Of a stretch of 64,000 nucleotides of DNA, positions 12,439 through 61,442 are shown piece by piece. Positions within the stretch are counted from its first letter, which is position 1; every line of letters begins with the position of its first letter. This DNA comes from Sneathiella sp. (GTDB lineage Bacteria > Pseudomonadota > Alphaproteobacteria > Sneathiellales > Sneathiellaceae): NCBI GenBank assembly GCA_036960695.1, contig JBALXM010000002.1:32642-96641 (forward strand), read 5' to 3'. The notes beneath the pieces are model-generated. The model made no database searches and was not told where the DNA came from. It saw only the letters and a list, made by a program, of their open reading frames with translations. A program made the translations under genes and the position numbers.

Positions 12439-12831
12439 CTAGGATTTGATGTCCAGTAAAGTCGCTTGCATTTCATCCCAAGCCATCAATGACTTAATAT
12501 TTGCTTCATAAGACCGCTGGGCAAGCTTGTTGTTTACCAGCTCCGTCGCTATATCCACATTCGGTGTTTCAACGAACCCTTCTTCAGAAGCTAAGGGATT
12601 GTTTGGCTGATAAGTCAGGGAGGAGAAGGGTTGGCGGTCTTGAACCTTTACTTCTGGCTGGTTTGAAGGTCCAGAAACTTGAACGGCATCTAGTGCGTGA
12701 TACGCTGAAGTGCTCCCCGTTGCACCTGGAGTGCCAACCGTTTGAGAATTAGCAATATTGCTTGCACCAACAGCCACTGTTGTTGTGGCGGCGCGCATTC
12801 CAGCAAGTGCTGATCCTACAATCGATGACAT
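12439..12831 (-). CDS. FlgC-like flagellar basal-body rod domain protein (paralogue)
   Basis: SNIANSQT N-terminal motif and YQPNNPLASEEGFVETPNVDIATELVN..AQRSYEANIK C-terminal rod motif. Confidence 0.8.
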   Translation of the reverse strand: MSSIVGSALAGMRAATTTVAVGASNIANSQTVGTPGATGSTSAYHALDAVQVSGPSNQPEVKVQDRQPFSSLTYQPNNPLASEEGFVETPNVDIATELVNNKLAQRSYEANIKSLMAWDEMQATLLDIKS

Positions 12832-12912
12832 CCTAAATTCCAATTCAATAAAATTTTAAACAAACTTTATACGAAAATACAATTTCAATTACACACCTTT
12901 TAAGGGAAAATC

Positions 12913-12928
12913 GTTAACAAACCGTTAA
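12913..12928 (-). promoter_or_regulatory. CtrA-binding site upstream of the flgC-like gene
   Basis: The minus strand reads TTAA-CGGTTTG-TTAAC, an exact TTAA-N7-TTAAC consensus ~80 bp upstream of the start. Confidence 0.7.
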
Positions 12929-21736: not shown

Positions 21737-24241
21737 ATGGAGCCGCTTTATAAGCCAGGGCGTGTACGCGATAGACGGTTTTTTCTAGGAGTGGATGCGC
21801 GCCAATTGGCTGCAGCATACTTCCTTGTAGCAACCTTGATTATTATTGCTGCGATTTTAGGGCAAGAACTTAGTTTTTTAAACTTGGTAATTTTGAGCAT
21901 AATGGTCCTCGCCGCGATGGGGATTGGGCTTTGGTATCTAATTTTCTATGGTTTGAGGCGCGCCGCTTCTGGTGATTTTGATCTGATTGCAGAATTTGTG
22001 ACTGCAAGTCCAGAAGGGCGGCTTGTCACCACTAGGGACGGCGAATTTGTTTTAGCAAATGACGCTTATTTCGATGTTCTTCGATTGGATAAAAATAACG
22101 GCAACAAAACACTGCTTGAAGTGATGGAAGGGAATTTTACGGCCCGAGAACAGCTGAAGTCTTTAAAAAATTCAGCGATCAAAGGAGAAGAGAGATCCAT
22201 TCGCGTTGAAATGAAAACGGTGGAAGGCTACTGGCTGGCTGTTCTTGCACATCCAATTCAGGCTATACCAGATTGCATTATTTGGTATGTGGCCGAGACA
22301 ACTACCCAGCATAAGATTGAAGAAGTCGAGCGAAGTGAGCGGGAAAAACTCTCTGAGTATTTCAACAATGCACCTGTTGGTTTTTATTCCTTAGACGAGC
22401 GGGGGCGCATTCAGTTTGTAAACCGGATTTTAGCGGACTGGCTTGGCTATCACCAACGTGAACTTTCTGAAGGCAGTATTGCTTTCTCGGACCTTATTCA
22501 AAAAGGCGATGATCGTCAGTTAAGTTTGATGGATAACCTTGCGGATAAAGGCCACCGATATGAAGGGGAGCTACAACTGCGCCGCCGTGATGGGACGGTG
22601 TTGCCTGTTCAGATTACACAAACTTTGGCGCGGGACGAGAGCGGTAAGGTCATTGGATCTCGCAGCGTGGTTCGTGAAATGCTTCAAGAGCAGCTCTGGC
22701 GGGAGCGGGTTGAAAGTGCAGAGCTTCATTTCCGTCGTTTCTTTGAGGCGGCCCCCATTGGAATTGTTCTACTTGATGACAAGGGTACTGTTGTTGAAGG
22801 AAATCCAGCGTTTCGGGTAATGACAGATACTGTTGTTGATAATGTCATTGGTGCTCATGTAGCAGAGTTGGTGGTTGAGGCTGACCGGCAGATACTGATC
22901 GACAAAATTGCAGAGGTGAGTGCCAGCGATTTAGCGCCCACTCCGATTGAAATGAAACTCAATGGTGATGATCGCGCCGCCAATTTTTATATTAGCGCTG
23001 TCACAGGCGGGGAGAGCAGCGCTGAAAGCTTGTTGATACATATTATCGACACGTCTGCGCAGCGCCTACTGGAAATTCAATTTGCGCAAAGTCAGAAAAT
23101 GCAGGCAGTCGGGCAACTTGCCGGCGGTATTGCTCATGACTTTAATAATCTTCTTACCGCAATGATTGGATTTAGTGATTTGTTATTGCTCCGTCATCAG
23201 GTGGGGGATCAGTCTTATTCAGATATCAACCAGATCAAACAAAATGCAAATCGCGCCGCAGGACTCGTGCGTCAATTGCTCGCCTTTTCCCGCCAGCAGA
23301 CTTTGCGTCCTAAGGTAACGGATTTAACGGATGTACTGGCGGAGCTTTCCAACTTGCTACGACGACTTATTGGTGAGGCAATTGAGCTTGAGATTAAACA
23401 TGCCCGCGATTTGTGGCTTGTAAAGGTAGACCAAAGTCAATTCGAACAAGTGGTCATAAATCTTGCCGTGAATGCCAGAGATGCCATGACGGGGGAAGGT
23501 AAGTTGTCCTTCCGCACAGAAAACTACTATGTTCGGGTTCGCGGAAAAGATGCTCATGAATTGGTGCCTGTAGGCGAGTATATCAAGATGAGTGTTATCG
23601 ATACAGGAACAGGTATTCCTCTCGATGTTTTAGCGAAAATTTTCGATCCCTTCTTTACAACTAAAAAAGTAGGAGAGGGAACCGGGCTTGGGCTCAGTAC
23701 TGTCTATGGTATTATCAAGCAGACCGGCGGTTTCATTTTTGCGGAGAATAACGAGGGCGGAGGGACGACCTTTAACATCTTCTTGCCAAGACACAGTGAT
23801 ATGTCACCTGTTATAGAAACGGTGGTAGAAACACCTCAACGGGTGCATAAAGATTTGTCCGGTGTGGGGACAATTCTGCTGGTTGAGGATGAAGATCCAG
23901 TGAGGCTGTTTGCAGCCCGTGCCTTGCAGAATAAAGGCTATGAAGTCTTGCAAGCTGATTGTGGTGAGACGGCTTTGGAGCTGGTAGCAAAATATGAAGG
24001 CCCAATTGACCTTCTTATAACAGATGTTGTTATGCCTAGCATGGACGGACCCACGTTGGTTAAGAATATTAGGCAAGAAATGCCAAATTTGAAGATCATC
24101 TTTATCTCAGGTTACGCAGAAGATGCTTTTCGGAAAGATCACGATTTTGATATTGATACAATTGAATTTCTACCAAAACCATTCTCGCTAAAGGAAATTG
24201 CCGAAAAGGTAAAAGAAGTCATGCTTGATGAGGATGCTTAA
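21737..24241 (+). CDS. cckA: Hybrid PAS-histidine kinase-receiver CckA
   Basis: 2 TM, PAS repeats, QSQKMQAVGQLAGGIAHDFNNLL H-box, GTGLGLS, C-terminal receiver domain; conserved position after flhB. Confidence 0.92.
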   Translation: MEPLYKPGRVRDRRFFLGVDARQLAAAYFLVATLIIIAAILGQELSFLNLVILSIMVLAAMGIGLWYLIFYGLRRAASGDFDLIAEFVTASPEGRLVTTRDGEFVLANDAYFDVLRLDKNNGNKTLLEVMEGNFTAREQLKSLKNSAIKGEERSIRVEMKTVEGYWLAVLAHPIQAIPDCIIWYVAETTTQHKIEEVERSEREKLSEYFNNAPVGFYSLDERGRIQFVNRILADWLGYHQRELSEGSIAFSDLIQKGDDRQLSLMDNLADKGHRYEGELQLRRRDGTVLPVQITQTLARDESGKVIGSRSVVREMLQEQLWRERVESAELHFRRFFEAAPIGIVLLDDKGTVVEGNPAFRVMTDTVVDNVIGAHVAELVVEADRQILIDKIAEVSASDLAPTPIEMKLNGDDRAANFYISAVTGGESSAESLLIHIIDTSAQRLLEIQFAQSQKMQAVGQLAGGIAHDFNNLLTAMIGFSDLLLLRHQVGDQSYSDINQIKQNANRAAGLVRQLLAFSRQQTLRPKVTDLTDVLAELSNLLRRLIGEAIELEIKHARDLWLVKVDQSQFEQVVINLAVNARDAMTGEGKLSFRTENYYVRVRGKDAHELVPVGEYIKMSVIDTGTGIPLDVLAKIFDPFFTTKKVGEGTGLGLSTVYGIIKQTGGFIFAENNEGGGTTFNIFLPRHSDMSPVIETVVETPQRVHKDLSGVGTILLVEDEDPVRLFAARALQNKGYEVLQADCGETALELVAKYEGPIDLLITDVVMPSMDGPTLVKNIRQEMPNLKIIFISGYAEDAFRKDHDFDIDTIEFLPKPFSLKEIAEKVKEVMLDEDA

Positions 24242-50192: not shown

Positions 50193-52544
50193 TTAAGCGT
50201 TTTGCGCAGCGCGCCACACTTTTTCTGGTGTTGCAGGCATATCAATTTCTTTGCCCAGAGCATTGGTAATGGCATTCATCAATGCGGCCGGTGCCGCAAT
50301 GGCTCCCGCCTCTCCGCAACCTTTAACGCCAAGCGGGTTGCTTGGACACGGTGTGTTGGTGGTTGTCACATTGAAGTTTGGCAAATCATCTGCCCGTGGC
50401 ATGCAGTAATCCATGTAGGATCCAGTAAGCAACTGCCCACTGTCTTCGTCATAGATAACGCCTTCCAGCAACGCTTGACCGATGCCTTGTGCAACACCGC
50501 CATGAACTTGACCTTCCACAATCATTGGATTGATCACGTTGCCAAAATCATCAGCTGCAGCCCATTCAAGGATCTCAACAACCCCAGTTTCAGGATCGAT
50601 TTCAACTTCAGCAATATGCGTACCAGCAGGGAATGTGAAATTGAGAGGATCGTAGAAAGCATTTTCAGCAAGACCTGGTTCCAGATCAGCTGGATAGTTA
50701 TGAGGCACATATGCCGCAAAAGCAATTTCACCAATTGTCAGCTGTTTATCAGTACCGGCAACGGAGAAAACACCATGTGCATGTTCGATGTCGTCTTCAG
50801 ATGCTTCCATGAGATGAGCCGCAATCTTTTTAGCTTTCTCAATGATTTTATCGGCAGCTTTTACAATGGCAGAACCACCAACAGCTAAAGACCGTGATCC
50901 ATATGTTCCCATACCAAAGGGAACTTTGGTCGTATCTCCATGAACAACTTCTACACTTTCAAAGGGAACACCCAGTTGATCGGTAATAAGTTGTGCAAAT
51001 GTTGTCTCATGGCCTTGACCATGGCTGTGACTTCCAGTGAAGATAGTGACGGAACCCGTTGGATTAAAACGAACTTCTGCACTTTCCCAAAGGCCAACAC
51101 CGGCTCCTAGTGATCCGACAGCCGCTGACGGTGCGATACCGCAAGCTTCAATAAATGCTGCTGATCCGATTCCGCGTAGCATACCCTTTGCTGCAGATTT
51201 AGCTTTTCTGGCTTCAAAACCATCATAGTCAATCATACCCTTGGCCGTTCTCATGGTTAGGGGATAATCACCGGAATCATAGGTCATGATGACGGGGGTT
51301 TCATAAGGATAGGCATCAGGCTGAATGAAGTTTTGCATCCGAAGTTCAGTTGGATCAACATTCAAATCACGCGCTGCCCGCTCCATCATGCGCTCTACAA
51401 CGTAGGTCGCTTCTGGACGGCCTGCGCCGCGATAGGCATCTACTGGCGTTGTATTGGTGAAACCTGCTTGAACTTCAGCATAAATACACGGCATTTTATA
51501 TTGGCCGTTAAGCAACGTTGCATAAAGGTAGGTTGGGACAGCCGATGCAAAAGTGGACAGATAAGCGCCCATATTTGCTTTTGTAGACACTCGGAAACCA
51601 AGGATGTTGTTATCTGCATCAAAGGCCATTTCAGCATGAGTTGCATGGTCACGACCATGGGCATCCGTTAAAAAGGCTTCAGACCGATCAGATGTCCATT
51701 TAATAGGACGGCGCACTTTTTTTGAGGCCCAAATCGTCGTGGTTTCTTCGGCATACAAGAAGATTTTACTACCAAAACCACCACCAACATCCGGCGCGAT
51801 AACGCGAAGTTTGTTTTCTGGAGCAATGGCAACAAAGGCGGATAAAAGAAGTCTTGCCACATGCGGGTTTTGACTTGTTGTGTGAAGTGTATATTCACCC
51901 GTTCCTGCGTCATACTCACCAAGTGCAGACCGTGGCTCCATTGGATTTGGTGACAGGCGATTATTCACAAGGTCCATTTTTGTTATATGGGCAGCGTTTA
52001 CAAAAGCAGCGTCAACGGCAGCTTTATCACCAAGTTCCCAATCGTAGCACTGATTTCCCGGTGCTTCTACATGCACTTGCGGTGCACCATTGGCTAACGC
52101 TTTTTGAATGGAAGTTACAGATTGAAGCTCTTCATAGTCTACTTCAATCAGCTCTGCTGCATCTTTCGCTTGTTCTAGGCTTTCGGCGACAATAAAAGCA
52201 ACCTGATCACCGACATGTTTTACTGTATCTACCGCGAGGCAAGGGTGAGGCGGCGCGATGTGATCGCTTCCGTCTTTATTTTTGATTCCCCAACCGCAAA
52301 TTAGACCGCCAACACCATCGGCTGCCATATCTGCGCCGGTAAAAATATCGACCACACCGGAGGCTGCTTTTGCCGCATCTAGGTCAATGCTTTTAATTTT
52401 TGCAAATGCGTGCGGTGAACGGAGAAAATATCCATAAGTCTGGCCGTATTTATTAATATCGTCCAGATATTTACCGTTACCTGTAATAAACCTTTGATCT
52501 TCCTTCCGTCTAACGGAAGCACCAATTCCATTTTCTACTGACAT
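50193..52544 (-). CDS. coxL: Mo-hydroxylase large subunit, form II CoxL-like
   Basis: [18 protein letters not shown], active-site loop AYRGAGR (form II), KGCGEAG. Confidence 0.9.
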
Positions 52545-57093: not shown

Positions 57094-57432
57094 AATTATA
57101 TCTCTAACTAATTTCTGTAGATCAAGGAATATAACACTACAAAATGGCCGTTAGTCCTGCAGGATAGAAGACGATCTCTATATTCATTAACAAACCTTGC
57201 ATTATATTAGTATAAAATTAATGTTCAGTTGCGTAAAATTTGACGGATTGCTTTGAAGACATGTTGGTAGGGGGTTCTATGCGACTATATTTCATAAAGT
57301 ATGCACTTTGTTTCTCGGTATTTTTATTCTCTGTTTACGGCCTTGTTAATCAAAGCAACGCTCAAGTAAAACTCACCACAAGTGAATACCCTCCGTACAC
57401 GTCACAATCGTTAAAGAATGGTGGAATCGCAA
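57006..57432. repeat. Degenerate direct repeat, copy B (coxG 5' remnant + intergenic + intact SBP 5' end)
   Basis: See copy A. Confidence 0.92.
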
Positions 57433-58037
57433 CGGATATCGTCCGTCAGGTTTTTAAAAAAATGGGAGAAGAAATTGAAGTGGATTTGCTTCCTTGGAAG
57501 CGAGGATACGAAGCAGTTGAAAAGGGGAATTATGTCGCAACCTATCCCCTTCTGAAAACAGCGGAGCGGGAAAATAAATTCCTATATAGTGACCCAATTA
57601 TTCTGTGGGAGAGCAAATTATTCGTGCATCGCGACACAAACATGAAATTTGAAGACTGGGAAGATTTAGAGGGACATGTAGAGTGCTTACCTTTGGGATT
57701 TGCAGCTATTCCTCAATTAAGAAAATTATATGTGAAAAAGAAGATCCATAGGGTTGTTCCCCGGGATTGCTGGAAAATGATTTTAAATGGTCGTGCAGAT
57801 TTCTTTGTTGAAGATGTCTTGGTTGGTGAAATTGTAAAGAAAAAAGCATTAGGGGCGGCTGCAAATCAAGTTATACCGCTAAAAAAAGCGGTTAGTCTAG
57901 ATTTTGGATATGTCGTCTTCCCAAAAAAGAGGAAGGATTCTGCCGAATTGGTTCAGCGCTTCAATAAGGCATTAAAGGAATTGATCCTAGCTGGTTCTTT
58001 GCAAAAAATAAGGCCACAGGAAGAAAACACGCATTAG
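57279..58037 (+). CDS. Periplasmic substrate-binding protein (family 3-like), stand-alone
   Basis: Signal peptide, EYPPY, PWKRG, ER..FLYSDP, GRADFF, FNKALKEL; no permease nearby. Confidence 0.85.
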   Translation: MRLYFIKYALCFSVFLFSVYGLVNQSNAQVKLTTSEYPPYTSQSLKNGGIATDIVRQVFKKMGEEIEVDLLPWKRGYEAVEKGNYVATYPLLKTAERENKFLYSDPIILWESKLFVHRDTNMKFEDWEDLEGHVECLPLGFAAIPQLRKLYVKKKIHRVVPRDCWKMILNGRADFFVEDVLVGEIVKKKALGAAANQVIPLKKAVSLDFGYVVFPKKRKDSAELVQRFNKALKELILAGSLQKIRPQEENTH

Positions 58038-58183
58038 TGTTTTAGGATGGTTTTCATGGCAGACATTGTTATCCGGGAATAATGGCGCCAGACTGGGAAA
58101 AGGGTGTTTTGTAGTTTTTAAAAAGGGAGCCGAAATTCGACCCCATACGAACAGTTCCCCCGCAATCGGCCTGGTGTCGTGTG

Positions 58184-58199
58184 TTAAGGTGTGATTAAC
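58184..58199 (+). promoter_or_regulatory. CtrA-binding site upstream of the Panacea-like gene
   Basis: TTAA-GGTGTGA-TTAAC, exact consensus, 47 bp before ATG 58246. Confidence 0.7.
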
Positions 58200-58245
58200 C
58201 TATAATCTGTATTTTAGTGCTTAACTTTAACAGTGTGGAATTACT

Positions 58246-58869
58246 ATGCGCCCTGCTATCAGATCTACCTTCGATATTGTCGCCTGGATTGAAGAACGAG
58301 GCGGAGACGCTGAAATTGACCTGAAAGGGCCGCTTCTTATGAAGTTGCTTTACTTATGTCAGGCAGTATACGCGAGTGAGCATAACGAGGCGAAACTGAT
58401 GCCGGCCACATTCTTGGCAACAGGCGCGGGGCCAATTGAGCCTGATATCTTTTTAGCGTTGGAGCAGGGGATCGGGTTAAGTGATCCTGTCGCCCCATCA
58501 GATCATGTAGAAGAAGTCTTACTCGCTGTCTGGAGCACTTGCTCTAACAAGACAACAGAAGAACTGGACGCGTTTTTGACGTCAGATAAAGCCTTTAATG
58601 AAGCGGTTAAAAGAGGGCGTAATTCTGAAATTCGCGTGTCCGAGATGGCCGCAGCCTATACAGGCGGTGTCTCTACTTTTATTGGGAAAACGCAAGTAAG
58701 CAAATTCCCCGATGGTTCGCCTTATAAGTCGACCCATTCAAATTTGGACGCTGTTCCCGCAGAAAATCAAGAAGTACGCTTCACCGCCGATGGCCGATCC
58801 GTGACCCGGTGGGAGCCGAAAAAACGGTTGAAGTCAAAAGATATCAAAACAATTCATAAAACTGAGTAA
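58246..58869 (+). CDS. Panacea/SocA (DUF4065)-like protein without an adjacent toxin
   Basis: DIVAWI....LMKLLYLCQAVY.....LMPATFLATGAGPIEPDI mirrors the family pattern LQKLLYYAQ...LF...F.AW..GPV.P. Confidence 0.7.
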   Translation: MRPAIRSTFDIVAWIEERGGDAEIDLKGPLLMKLLYLCQAVYASEHNEAKLMPATFLATGAGPIEPDIFLALEQGIGLSDPVAPSDHVEEVLLAVWSTCSNKTTEELDAFLTSDKAFNEAVKRGRNSEIRVSEMAAAYTGGVSTFIGKTQVSKFPDGSPYKSTHSNLDAVPAENQEVRFTADGRSVTRWEPKKRLKSKDIKTIHKTE

Positions 58870-58874
58870 AGAGC

Positions 58875-59738
58875 TCAACTCTTTCCAAACTTCTTTCTAA
58901 GTCCAGCGCAGTAGTCTTTCTCCGGCGTGGCTTCGGTTGTCCATATTGTATTGTAGAGTGAGAACTGATCTTGTTCAGAATTGAGGGCGGTTTCTTCAAT
59001 AATGCCAACAGCCAATACCTGCTGGTTGATCAGGCGCTGTTTTAAATAATAGGGCACCCCCCGATCTTTCCGAATATGCCCGTTTCCGGCAATGAGAAAA
59101 GCTTTTCCGTCCCCTTTTACTTTGAGCATTTGGGTTGCCATTAAATGATCTTTGGCAATTTGCAGGCGGCTCATGGGCTTGATCATATTTTCTGGTAGCA
59201 AGTCACAATGGCTTTCCTTAATCTGCTCATTAAGATTTGCCATTTGTCCCTCTGGCAACGCTTGAAAATCAGATTTCGAGGTCTTCATTTTCCCCATCAA
59301 TTCCTTGCGGGGGTAACTGCCATATAAAATGCGAGCCTTTGCTTCTTTTGTTATTTTAAACAAAGGGGCGTAAAAGCGCCAATCGGGCCATCCTGATTTC
59401 TCCCAATTAAGGGCTTTTTCAAGATCGGTGAAAAGGATTTCTCCTGTCAGATATTGGTCAATGACGGGCTGTTGATCTTTTGTGATCATCTCAAAAACAA
59501 CCCCATCACTGGACATTATAGAATGACGAAGAATTGCCGCCTGTACTTGATGATGGGCGGGGTTGTCGTGTTTTTCGCCAAGTAATATAAAGTCAGATTT
59601 TGAAACTCGTTTCGCCACATCTGATCCAGCAACGGCTGACGGTAACGGCGCATTAGGACCAATGGCTTCATTCGGCGCGGCGCAGGCTGCAAGGGCTAAG
59701 GCTAAGAATAGTCCAAGAAGACGAGAGGTGTTTGTCAT
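58875..59738 (-). CDS. ChaN-family (heme/iron-related) lipoprotein
   Basis: Lipobox LAAC; LLGEKHDNPAHH, FEM, GNGHIRKDRGVP. Confidence 0.85.
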   Translation of the reverse strand: MTNTSRLLGLFLALALAACAAPNEAIGPNAPLPSAVAGSDVAKRVSKSDFILLGEKHDNPAHHQVQAAILRHSIMSSDGVVFEMITKDQQPVIDQYLTGEILFTDLEKALNWEKSGWPDWRFYAPLFKITKEAKARILYGSYPRKELMGKMKTSKSDFQALPEGQMANLNEQIKESHCDLLPENMIKPMSRLQIAKDHLMATQMLKVKGDGKAFLIAGNGHIRKDRGVPYYLKQRLINQQVLAVGIIEETALNSEQDQFSLYNTIWTTEATPEKDYCAGLRKKFGKS

Positions 59739-59750
59739 TTTTGAAGTGCC

Positions 59751-61442
59751 TTAAACATAGATTACCACAAGGGCGACAGCAAATAGGATCAAAATGACCG
59801 AGACCGCGTGTCCCGATGAGATTGTTCGCGACATGGCCTGTCCTTCGCCGTGGGATTTTTCTGCTTTAGCAATTGCCCAACCGACGAACAATAAGCCAAA
59901 GATTTTGATCTGATTCCACAATTCCGAGACGATTGATGATGTTCTAATCAGAGCAACTTTTCCAACTTTTCGGTAAATCCAATCGAAATCCAGCGTGATG
60001 CTCTCTTTCATCTTCGGATAATAGCCAGTGCGAAGGGCAAGGGCGAAAATTAGCACAGCAAAAGCAATTAATTGCAGTTGGGTCACCACATGGCTTGCGG
60101 TGTAGACATGACTTTCCATCGGGGTGGGGAGCAAGGCAAAGAAGGTGGCGGGGGATAGGCCTATAACAATACCAAGTCCCGCCATCACAGCCATAGCAAG
60201 GAGCATGTGGAGAGGGGCTTCTTGAAACCGTTTACCGTTATCTTTGCTGAAAAATCCAAACAAAGGAATTTTAATACCGACATTGTCGATAACAGCGACA
60301 GCACCAAAAAGCATGACAAGCCAAAGCAAGATCATTTTCTCATCTAATGCCGCAGATAAAATCAAGGATTTGGTGGCAAACGCGCCTGTGAGCGGGGCCG
60401 CGATAATAATCAAGGCACCCAGAATAGCAAATAGACTGGTGATAGGCATGGATTTGTAAAGACCGCCTAATTCCGTCACTTTGGCTGTTCCCGTGCGATA
60501 CAACGCGGCACCGGTTACCATAAACATCAAGCAAGTATAAAGGATGCTGATGGTCGCATGAGCCGCGACACCGTTGATGGCAAGTTCGCTGCCAATTCCA
60601 ATCGCAATAACCATGAACCCTTGTTGGCTATTCAATGAATAGGCCATGGTGCGCCGTAAGTCATTTTCCAAAGTGGCATGTACGACCGGGAAAATGACCA
60701 TAACGGCCCCAATCCAGATCAGTAAATCTGTGCCAGGGAAACTGCGGGCTAGGGCGTAAATAGCTAATTTTGTGGTAAAGGCAGACAGAATAACTGTGCC
60801 GGTAACTGTGGCTTCGGGGTACGAGTCCTGCACCCAATTGTGCAACATTGGAAACGCGGCCTTGATACCAAAGGCGATTAAAAAGAGCCAAGTGGCAAGG
60901 CTGCCAAATTCCATAGTCTCGAATTTGATGCTGCCAGTATCGGCGGCATATAAGGCAATGCCCCCCAGCAAAACCACGCCAGATGTAACCTGAATGATTA
61001 AATAGCGGATGCCTGATTTGAAGCTTTGCTCGTTCCGGCTGGCCCAAATCAAAAAGACGGAAGAGACCGCCGTAATCTCCCAAAAGGCAAAAAGCGTAAT
61101 AAGGTCGCCCGCAAAGACGGCACCGATCGCAGATCCGGCATAAATCAACGTTGCCACATGCTGCACAGTATCTTTTACATGGAGGGAATAGAGAATACCC
61201 GCAAAAGCCGCCACATGAAAAATAAGCCCAAAGACACGGGAGAGTGGATCAATATGGGTGACGGTCAGTTGCATCCCCATTATCTCAAACTGTCCCCATG
61301 ATCCAAGACCTAAGGAGAGCAGCTGTGCCATCCCGAGGACGGGAAGGGCAAGAAGTAAAACCCCCCGGACGACGCCCGATGTTAAGGGGACAATTAGCGC
61401 GCCAAGGATTAAAATAATGCCGGGGTTAAGTCCCTCAATCAT
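59751..61442 (-). CDS. Mrp-type Na+/H+ antiporter MrpA/D-like subunit
   Basis: Proton_antipo_M pattern: FWEITA, GIKAAFP.LHNWVQDSYPEA, FTTK, AYSLNSQQG. Confidence 0.85.
   Translation of the reverse strand: MIEGLNPGIILILGALIVPLTSGVVRGVLLLALPVLGMAQLLSLGLGSWGQFEIMGMQLTVTHIDPLSRVFGLIFHVAAFAGILYSLHVKDTVQHVATLIYAGSAIGAVFAGDLITLFAFWEITAVSSVFLIWASRNEQSFKSGIRYLIIQVTSGVVLLGGIALYAADTGSIKFETMEFGSLATWLFLIAFGIKAAFPMLHNWVQDSYPEATVTGTVILSAFTTKLAIYALARSFPGTDLLIWIGAVMVIFPVVHATLENDLRRTMAYSLNSQQGFMVIAIGIGSELAINGVAAHATISILYTCLMFMVTGAALYRTGTAKVTELGGLYKSMPITSLFAILGALIIIAAPLTGAFATKSLILSAALDEKMILLWLVMLFGAVAVIDNVGIKIPLFGFFSKDNGKRFQEAPLHMLLAMAVMAGLGIVIGLSPATFFALLPTPMESHVYTASHVVTQLQLIAFAVLIFALALRTGYYPKMKESITLDFDWIYRKVGKVALIRTSSIVSELWNQIKIFGLLFVGWAIAKAEKSHGEGQAMSRTISSGHAVSVILILFAVALVVIYV

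Follow-up and report, generated by a model that had tools for sequence, protein, structure and literature searches.

We examined a 64,000-nucleotide window of a Sneathiella sp. genome (contig JBALXM010000002.1 of assembly GCA_036960695.1, positions 32,642 to 96,641 of the forward strand; coordinates given without a contig are counted from the first letter of this window), in which a gene encoding a toxin-less, Panacea-like protein lies behind an exact CtrA-type box and a predicted promoter (Table 1). From comparisons of sequence and predicted structure we conclude that the gene represents a vertically inherited, toxin-less, divergent and Alphaproteobacteria-specific branch of the Panacea (PanA/DUF4065) fold.

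Table 1. Features of the Panacea-like gene, its promoter and its two flanking genes
Feature	Position	Strand	Basis or remark
Coding sequence, toxin-less Panacea-like protein	58246..58869 (incl. stop)	+	ATG start, 207 aa
Residues 1-140, predicted divergent Panacea domain	58246..58665	+	Pfam, hhalign, AlphaFold2, BFVD
Residues 141-172, linker	58666..58761	+	Variable length and sequence; low-confidence prediction
Residues 173-195, predicted C-terminal beta-hairpin and basic tail, ENQEVRFTADGRSVTRWEPKKRL	58762..58830	+	Conservation, predicted strands
CtrA-type box GTTAA-N7-TTAAC, GTTAAGGTGTGATTAAC	58183..58199	+	Exact on both strands; overlaps inferred -35 region
Inferred -10 hexamer TATTTT (TAnnnT)	58210..58215	+	Starts 11 nt after the TTAAC half-site
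SBP_bac_3 gene	57240..58037	+	Pfam; lineage-specific neighbour, outside the unit
chaN, haem-binding Tiki/ChaN family	58875..59738	-	PF04187, E 2.3e-41; convergent; last gene of an Mrp-like operon

Domain, linker and tail of the Panacea-like protein

An earlier, sequence-only reading of the window had called the protein Panacea/SocA-like and had proposed confirmation of DUF4065 by hidden Markov models as a check; that confirmation came from profile-profile comparison and not from the Pfam threshold. With PF13274 (SocA_Panacea) the protein scores 21.1 bits, below the gathering threshold of 25.7, and only four of 21 family members match this model at E < 0.01. A precomputed PF13274 match exists for some of the more distant members. 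When the family profile was compared by hhalign with canonical PanA, represented by four above-threshold Panacea proteins from the genomes of relatives, the two aligned over 136 columns with a probability of 96.5% (E 9.6e-10), and the GPI at residues 62-64 fell opposite the GPV signature of canonical PanA. The protein also matches phrog_1281 (E 1.9e-7). G62 and P63 do not vary among 50 family members, and an invariant stretch, KLMPATF (residues 50-56), which adjoins the GPI strand, is specific to the family.

AlphaFold2 modelling from a 50-sequence alignment returned predicted local distance difference test (pLDDT) values of 88-98 per 10-residue block over residues 1-140, with a central helix (28-45) and a small sheet (57-59 and 62-64) bearing the GPI, a topology that fits the published description of Panacea, in which a small sheet with the GPV accompanies a central helix (Kurata et al., 2022; PMC8832971). 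The fold matches returned by Foldseek from BFVD were two 147-residue phage proteins (target-normalised template modelling score 0.74-0.76). Foldseek searches of the PDB with both AlphaFold2 models found nothing, in agreement with the statement that the Panacea fold had no identifiable solved relative as of 2022 (PMC8832971), and a PDB sequence search with the family profile likewise found nothing. We conclude from these comparisons that residues 1-140 are, by prediction, a very divergent Panacea domain.

The domain is followed by a linker that is modelled with pLDDT values of 55-67 and that differs greatly in length between clades, ranging from very short to roughly 100 residues across the family. 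Between Sneathiella and Ferrovibrio the linker is wholly different in both length and sequence, and in the tail that follows it residues Q175 to P191 are nearly unchanged and the stretch QEVRFTADGRSVTRWxPKRR is almost invariant. The tail is predicted to form a hairpin with strands at 177-179 and 185-187; G183, W189 and P191 are invariant in 50 diverse family members, nearly every full-length member inspected has an ending of the form [T/S/R]-x-[D/S/T]-G-[R/K]-x(2-5)-[K/R]-W-x-P plus basic residues, and some members (e.g. P0126) carry two tail motifs. Within the genome the motif is unique. The C-terminal extension had earlier been read as ending in RWEPKKRL; this string is present at residues 188-195, followed by 12 further residues before the end of the protein. 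A library match, P0243, with eight hits to the tail region was rejected as spurious, being due to immunoglobulin-like repeats.

Domain, linker and hairpin are common to every family member, and a folded domain joined through a flexible linker to a short, conserved peptide at the terminus is how a tethering adaptor is built. Among the tethering adaptors of AAA+ proteases, those of SspB type consist of a substrate-binding domain, a variable flexible linker and a short C-terminal docking peptide, and alignments and AlphaFold2 models give the Panacea-like family the same three-part build, although it has no sequence or fold relationship to SspB and its tail motif, G-R/K-x-V-x-x-W-x-P, is unlike the XB peptide. 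In Sneathiella glossodoripedis (P0057, G016:C11:739202-739809) the orthologue is split by an in-frame TAA into pieces covering residues 1-141 and 136-203, which reflects either a break in the gene between its domain and tail parts or an error in the draft assembly.

The CtrA-type box and the CtrA system

The core of the box, TTAA-N7-TTAAC (TTAAGGTGTGATTAAC at 58184-58199), forms a dyad together with the G at 58183, such that the minus strand matches as well. The sequence-only reading had placed an exact box 47 bp before the ATG, and it is indeed there, with 46 nt intervening. That reading had also named lack of conservation as a ground for giving up its proposal; the box proved exact, 61-72 nt before the ATG, in all 20 Sneathiella orthologous loci and likewise in every one of the 25 Sneathiellales loci taken from the species collection, two sets that largely overlap, and this conservation across orthologous loci removes a chance origin. 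In the 20 promoters, aligned on the box, the information content reaches 2.0 bits at TTAA and TTAACC, lies between 0.0 and 1.0 bits at the seven spacer positions, and is near zero in the 25 nt upstream, where mean pairwise identity is 26%. The extended consensus of the 20 loci, TTAA-N7-TTAACCAT, or written out gTTAAg....gaTTAACCAtTa, matches the Caulobacter CtrA consensus.

The T, the A and the final T of the -10 hexamer are also invariant in these promoters (2.0 bits). We infer a transcription start near 58222, some 7 nt past TATTTT, in which case the box would cover about -42 to -27 and replace the -35 hexamer. A box in place of the -35 hexamer is the arrangement of CtrA-activated promoters, as in Caulobacter ccrM and class II flagellar genes, where it lies over the -35 region; TTAA-N7-TTAAC here similarly takes the place of the -35, with a TAnnnT -10 following about 11 nt downstream, although both the start site and control by CtrA are in this case predicted from sequence. 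A generic sigma-70 scan did not call this promoter, which has no -35 hexamer, an outcome that is expected if an activator site stands in for the -35 element. A search for RNA-seq runs containing this locus returned none.

Comparison with the closest relative (G011, 91% protein identity) revealed intergenic regions that are unrelated up to the box and near-identical between the box and the ATG. Most Sneathiella have a divergent gene upstream whose distance to the box varies, whereas the distance from the box to the Panacea-like gene is fixed, which assigns the box to the latter. Outside the genus, 15 Ferrovibrio-type loci (62-69% G+C) carry a one-mismatch box, TTCA-N7-TTAA(G/C), with the same spacing from box to CTAG in the loci inspected, and one metagenome-assembled genome (MAG) of the Magnetospirillaceae has TTAA-N7-TTAC.

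CtrA itself is encoded at C6:25019-25708; over 230 aa it is 76.5% identical to a Caulobacter CtrA sequence. The cckA reported earlier in the window holds as a cckA-like gene (21737-24241), for which NF046020 is the best match, but at 775 bits it stays below the cut-off of 1000 for this model. By a crude longest-open-reading-frame gene call, which makes about 90% of the genome coding, 26 of the 33 TTAA-N7-TTAA sites with the C extension are intergenic. The second exact box of the window (12913-12928) lies 71 nt upstream of a flgC-like gene (12439-12843, minus strand) encoding a 134-aa flagellar rod protein with Flg_bbr_C, and flgC-type rod genes are classic CtrA targets. Elsewhere in the genome a box precedes a gene read by eye as encoding a methyl-accepting chemotaxis protein, and full boxes precede a DUF2497/PopZ-like gene (N-terminal MEEILASIRRII) and a MucR/Ros regulator gene (C22:5662-6496 and C132:84732-85355). 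Six paralogous secreted proteins of about 200 aa with a sorting-type tail (VPLPA...G-hydrophobic-RRKK) each have a full TTAA-N7-TTAAC upstream (C28:180-833, C32:6590-7213, C56:94230-94865, C113:2091-2681, C127:17703-18317 and C29:70797-71489) and may, judging from these boxes, constitute a CtrA-controlled family of surface proteins.

Distribution and genomic neighbourhood

A single-copy orthologue (48-91% identity) was found in all 25 Sneathiella genomes searched. Across 201 evenly sampled alphaproteobacterial genomes the family profile detected one copy in 33, never duplicated, in 29 of 183 genera, and members include proteins from Ferrovibrio, Desertibaculum, Marinibaculum, Telmatospirillum, Roseospirillum, Caenispirillum, Roseospira and Magnetospirillum. 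Copies of Sneathiella type also occur in records titled Pseudomonas marincola MAG (L028) and Discosporangium mesarthrocarpum (P0064), one of them with a perfect box; these are probably mis-binned or contaminant contigs. For GC-rich loci, where greedy calls of open reading frames (ORFs) are unreliable, direct frame extension and database gene calls were used.

No toxin-like neighbour recurs among about 105 loci. The description of the protein as an antitoxin-like domain without a partner thus holds for the window and for the relatives examined, and the consistently adjacent cognate toxin that would have told against it does not appear in those relatives. The two tiny ORFs considered as partners (58066-58194 and 58217-58324) were ruled out, since neither is conserved even in the 91%-identical relative. 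PADLOC returned no match for the gene. Canonical Panacea genes are sporadic in the genus, occurring in three of 16 genomes, and in the two that we inspected (L101 1393-2374 and L102 1390-2351; 193-194 aa) an ORF of 127-130 aa abuts within 4 nt. These abutting ORFs are related to each other, share the motif LLVPSGP...HL[FY]VV and are likely PanT toxins, an abutting ORF being the classic PanAT layout.

The Panacea-like protein resembles PanA antitoxins (Kurata et al., 2022; PMC8832971) in its fold class by profile-profile comparison, in a domain of about 140 residues and in a G-P-[VI] signature on strand beta2, beside the central helix. It differs from them in scoring below the Pfam threshold, in lacking an adjacent PanT, in its own invariant KLMPATF block, in being encoded by a core, single-copy, syntenic gene where PanA is sporadic or mobile, and in a C-terminal linker and hairpin where the accessory domains of PanA (helix-turn-helix, PAD1) are N-terminal (PMC8832971). 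Single-copy, toxin-less and conserved, it does look domesticated, as the sequence-only reading had suggested.

That reading had correctly described the flanks as a solute-binding protein gene about 200 bp upstream, with tiny ORFs between, and a convergent chaN downstream: the end of the SBP_bac_3 gene is 208 bp from the ATG, and the stop codons of the Panacea-like gene and chaN are 5 bp apart. In the closest relative the SBP_bac_3 gene is apparently missing, as judged by ORF size, and an ORF the size of an enoyl-CoA hydratase precedes the promoter in its place; this apparent absence, together with the intergenic homology that starts at the box, points to a lineage-specific insertion of the SBP_bac_3 gene. 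A CoxL-type molybdopterin dehydrogenase large subunit is encoded about 6 kb upstream of the Panacea-like gene (50193-52544, minus strand), and most relatives have the cox cluster, in which CoxG comes last, right next to the Panacea-like gene in divergent orientation, from which it follows that four genes were inserted here, encoding a LysR regulator, a metallo-beta-lactamase-fold protein, an enoyl-CoA hydratase (these three named by eye) and the solute-binding protein.

Downstream, the 20 Sneathiella loci have either a convergent ORF that matches chaN in size or, with nothing between, an MrpD-like gene (read by eye); the upstream neighbours are proteins read by eye as CoxG-like or PAS-like, or a histidine kinase, with the solute-binding protein in the window. 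Among 80 loci of the species collection, about 46 have a cox-type dehydrogenase cluster and 39 have Mrp subunits nearby. The order Panacea-like gene, convergent chaN, Proton_antipo_M (about 565 aa), small protein and second Proton_antipo_M, the last four in the same orientation, is the same in Sneathiella (58246-61442), Roseospirillum parvum and Caenispirillum salinarum (L109 4001-8564 and L110 4001-8603), and in other lineages the Panacea-like gene lies directly upstream of mnhE. Its adjacency to an Mrp-like/ChaN operon is therefore old and has survived inversion; a recent insertion of chaN was ruled out by the shared arrangement in Rhodospirillaceae.

Proposed function and alternatives

The reading that we favour, with a probability of about 0.45, is that of a CtrA-activated, domesticated, toxin-less Panacea protein acting as a tethering adaptor or anti-factor. 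Phosphorylated CtrA would activate the gene through the perfect box that replaces its -35 region, within a CtrA programme that would here also include the flagellar, chemotaxis, popZ-like and mucR genes preceded by boxes; the Panacea domain would take hold of a cellular protein whose gene lies elsewhere, and the tail peptide would dock the complex, via the flexible linker, onto a highly conserved machine. The adaptor function and the identity of the partner are speculative, and a ClpXP-type protease would be the leading candidate for the machine by analogy with SocA and SspB. SocA of Caulobacter crescentus, a type VI antitoxin that serves as the ClpXP adaptor for SocB, is the only adaptor precedent for the Panacea fold (cited in PMC8832971). 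Like the protein described here, it is a Panacea-domain protein of an alphaproteobacterium, and it works through a conserved cellular machine and not only by sequestration. Literature searches found no publication on the family or on a link between Panacea and CtrA, and no counterpart of the gene in described CtrA regulons.

Several results weigh against this reading. The SocA half of the original Panacea/SocA-like label fell, the Panacea half having been upheld by hhalign: the protein scores 14.3 bits with the NCBIfam SocA equivalog NF047745, whose cut-off is 190, and is not SocA; unlike socA, its gene has no socB-like neighbour, and its family is found in Rhodospirillales-like lineages. A search of the PDB with the tail peptide found nothing similar, and the tail bears no likeness to a known ClpX-binding peptide. 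As a rule, PanA antitoxins need no protease and neutralise through direct binding (PMC8832971), so that the link to a protease rests on one precedent and the SocA/ClpXP part of the reading on analogy only. With regard to the box, a 7-nt spacer gives 40 matches genome-wide, compared with 19-58 for other spacers, and the window holds three matches where 1.08 are expected, a number reached by 13 of 100 shuffles; the 7-nt spacing is thus not over-represented in the genome, and the case for the box cannot be made from enrichment by itself. Moreover, four Rhodospirillaceae loci (Magnetospirillum sp., Roseospirillum and Caenispirillum) have nothing box-like, which makes the predicted control by CtrA specific to the Sneathiella/Ferrovibrio clade and not family-wide. 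The more specific proposal is doubtful: that in this housekeeping Panacea branch the domain has ceased to protect from a linked toxin and is a cell-cycle-timed, CtrA-activated adaptor that hands a cellular client to a conserved machine such as ClpXP via its invariant G-R-x-V-x-x-W-x-P tail. On that proposal SocA would be one instance of a broader use of the Panacea fold in regulated proteolysis or sequestration.

A further point against docking in trans comes from the models themselves. With a deeper alignment the AlphaFold2 pLDDT rises for the hairpin (59 to 77) and for residues 1-10 (73 to 95), and the rise of the hairpin could mean that it folds back on its own domain and does not dock elsewhere. 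The protein might then be a self-contained switch, in which the hairpin, possibly left over from a partner once fused to the domain, acts as an intramolecular ligand and fills the binding groove of its own domain until released by a signal or competitor; domain and hairpin would in that case be partners of each other. The joint conservation of domain and hairpin in every member would suit such a switch, as would the position of the invariant KLMPATF beside the GPI strand, which has been implicated in partner neutralisation (PMC8832971). We nevertheless regard it as unlikely: pLDDT is a local measure, linkers that range from very short to roughly 100 residues suit tethering in trans, and the two tail motifs of some members also speak against an intramolecular ligand.

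Slightly less likely again is a role as accessory factor of the neighbouring Mrp-like/ChaN membrane system, regulating or assembling an antiporter-like complex. The shared synteny in Sneathiella, Roseospirillum and Caenispirillum and the position upstream of mnhE elsewhere could be taken in this sense, as could the presence of an MrpD-like gene within 4 kb in 39 of 80 loci. MnhE is present in 19 of 33 family-positive compared with 59 of 168 family-negative genomes (Fisher p = 0.02), and in 13 of the 19 MnhE-bearing positives, across nine families, mnhE lies within 18 kb on the same contig. Yet MnhE is missing from the other 14 family-positive genomes, the mostly convergent orientation argues against co-transcription, and Magnetospirillum-type loci have neither Mrp nor cox neighbours; the cox cluster on the other side is equally conserved, as expected of old synteny and not of a functional link.

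An improbable alternative starts from membership in the CtrA regulon of a lineage in which CtrA mainly drives motility, and holds that the protein is a flagellum-linked chaperone or export adaptor that binds a flagellar substrate and docks on the export apparatus. The boxes at the flgC-like gene in the window and at the methyl-accepting chemotaxis protein gene elsewhere fit this proposal, and FlhA is found in 28 of 33 family-positive against 110 of 168 family-negative genomes (p = 0.04). This enrichment is weak, four genomes (G050, G113, G162 and G213) have an intact Panacea-like gene without FlhA, and none of the loci examined has an adjacent flagellar gene. The FlhA and MnhE associations are both confounded by phylogeny, and neither is obligate.

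The conserved dyad might instead be the site of another regulator, or a mere promoter element, a view to which we give about as little credence as to the flagellar one. The GTTAA-N7-TTAAC palindrome could be used by any dimeric regulator, and both the lack of a genome-wide excess of the 7-nt spacing and the absence of the dyad from Rhodospirillaceae members are compatible with this view. Against it, the extended consensus of the 20 loci fits the Caulobacter CtrA consensus, the half-sites alone are conserved while the spacer is free, CtrA is highly conserved here, and other boxes precede classic CtrA targets.

Least probable of all is an orphan antitoxin directed in trans against PanT-type toxins of phages or mobile elements, or against a toxin elsewhere in the chromosome, close to the broad trans-acting antitoxin of the sequence-only reading: the Panacea fold, its description as a promiscuous neutraliser that can evolve towards new toxins (PMC8832971) and the canonical PanAT modules circulating in the genus favour it, but fast-turnover antitoxins do not look like this single-copy, syntenic gene, whose family keeps its own invariant residues across at least 29 genera; a canonical Panacea match is missing from 13 of the 16 genus genomes, PADLOC gave no match for the gene, and the invariant tail is left without a role.

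In many genera of Alphaproteobacteria the branch has become fixed as a single-copy core gene, with an added invariant peptide of docking type, and in one clade it appears to be wired to the cell-cycle master regulator, which adds a well-footprinted predicted CtrA target to the poorly studied order Sneathiellales. Together, these features would make the gene a clear case of a defence part from mobile elements that has been domesticated into host physiology.

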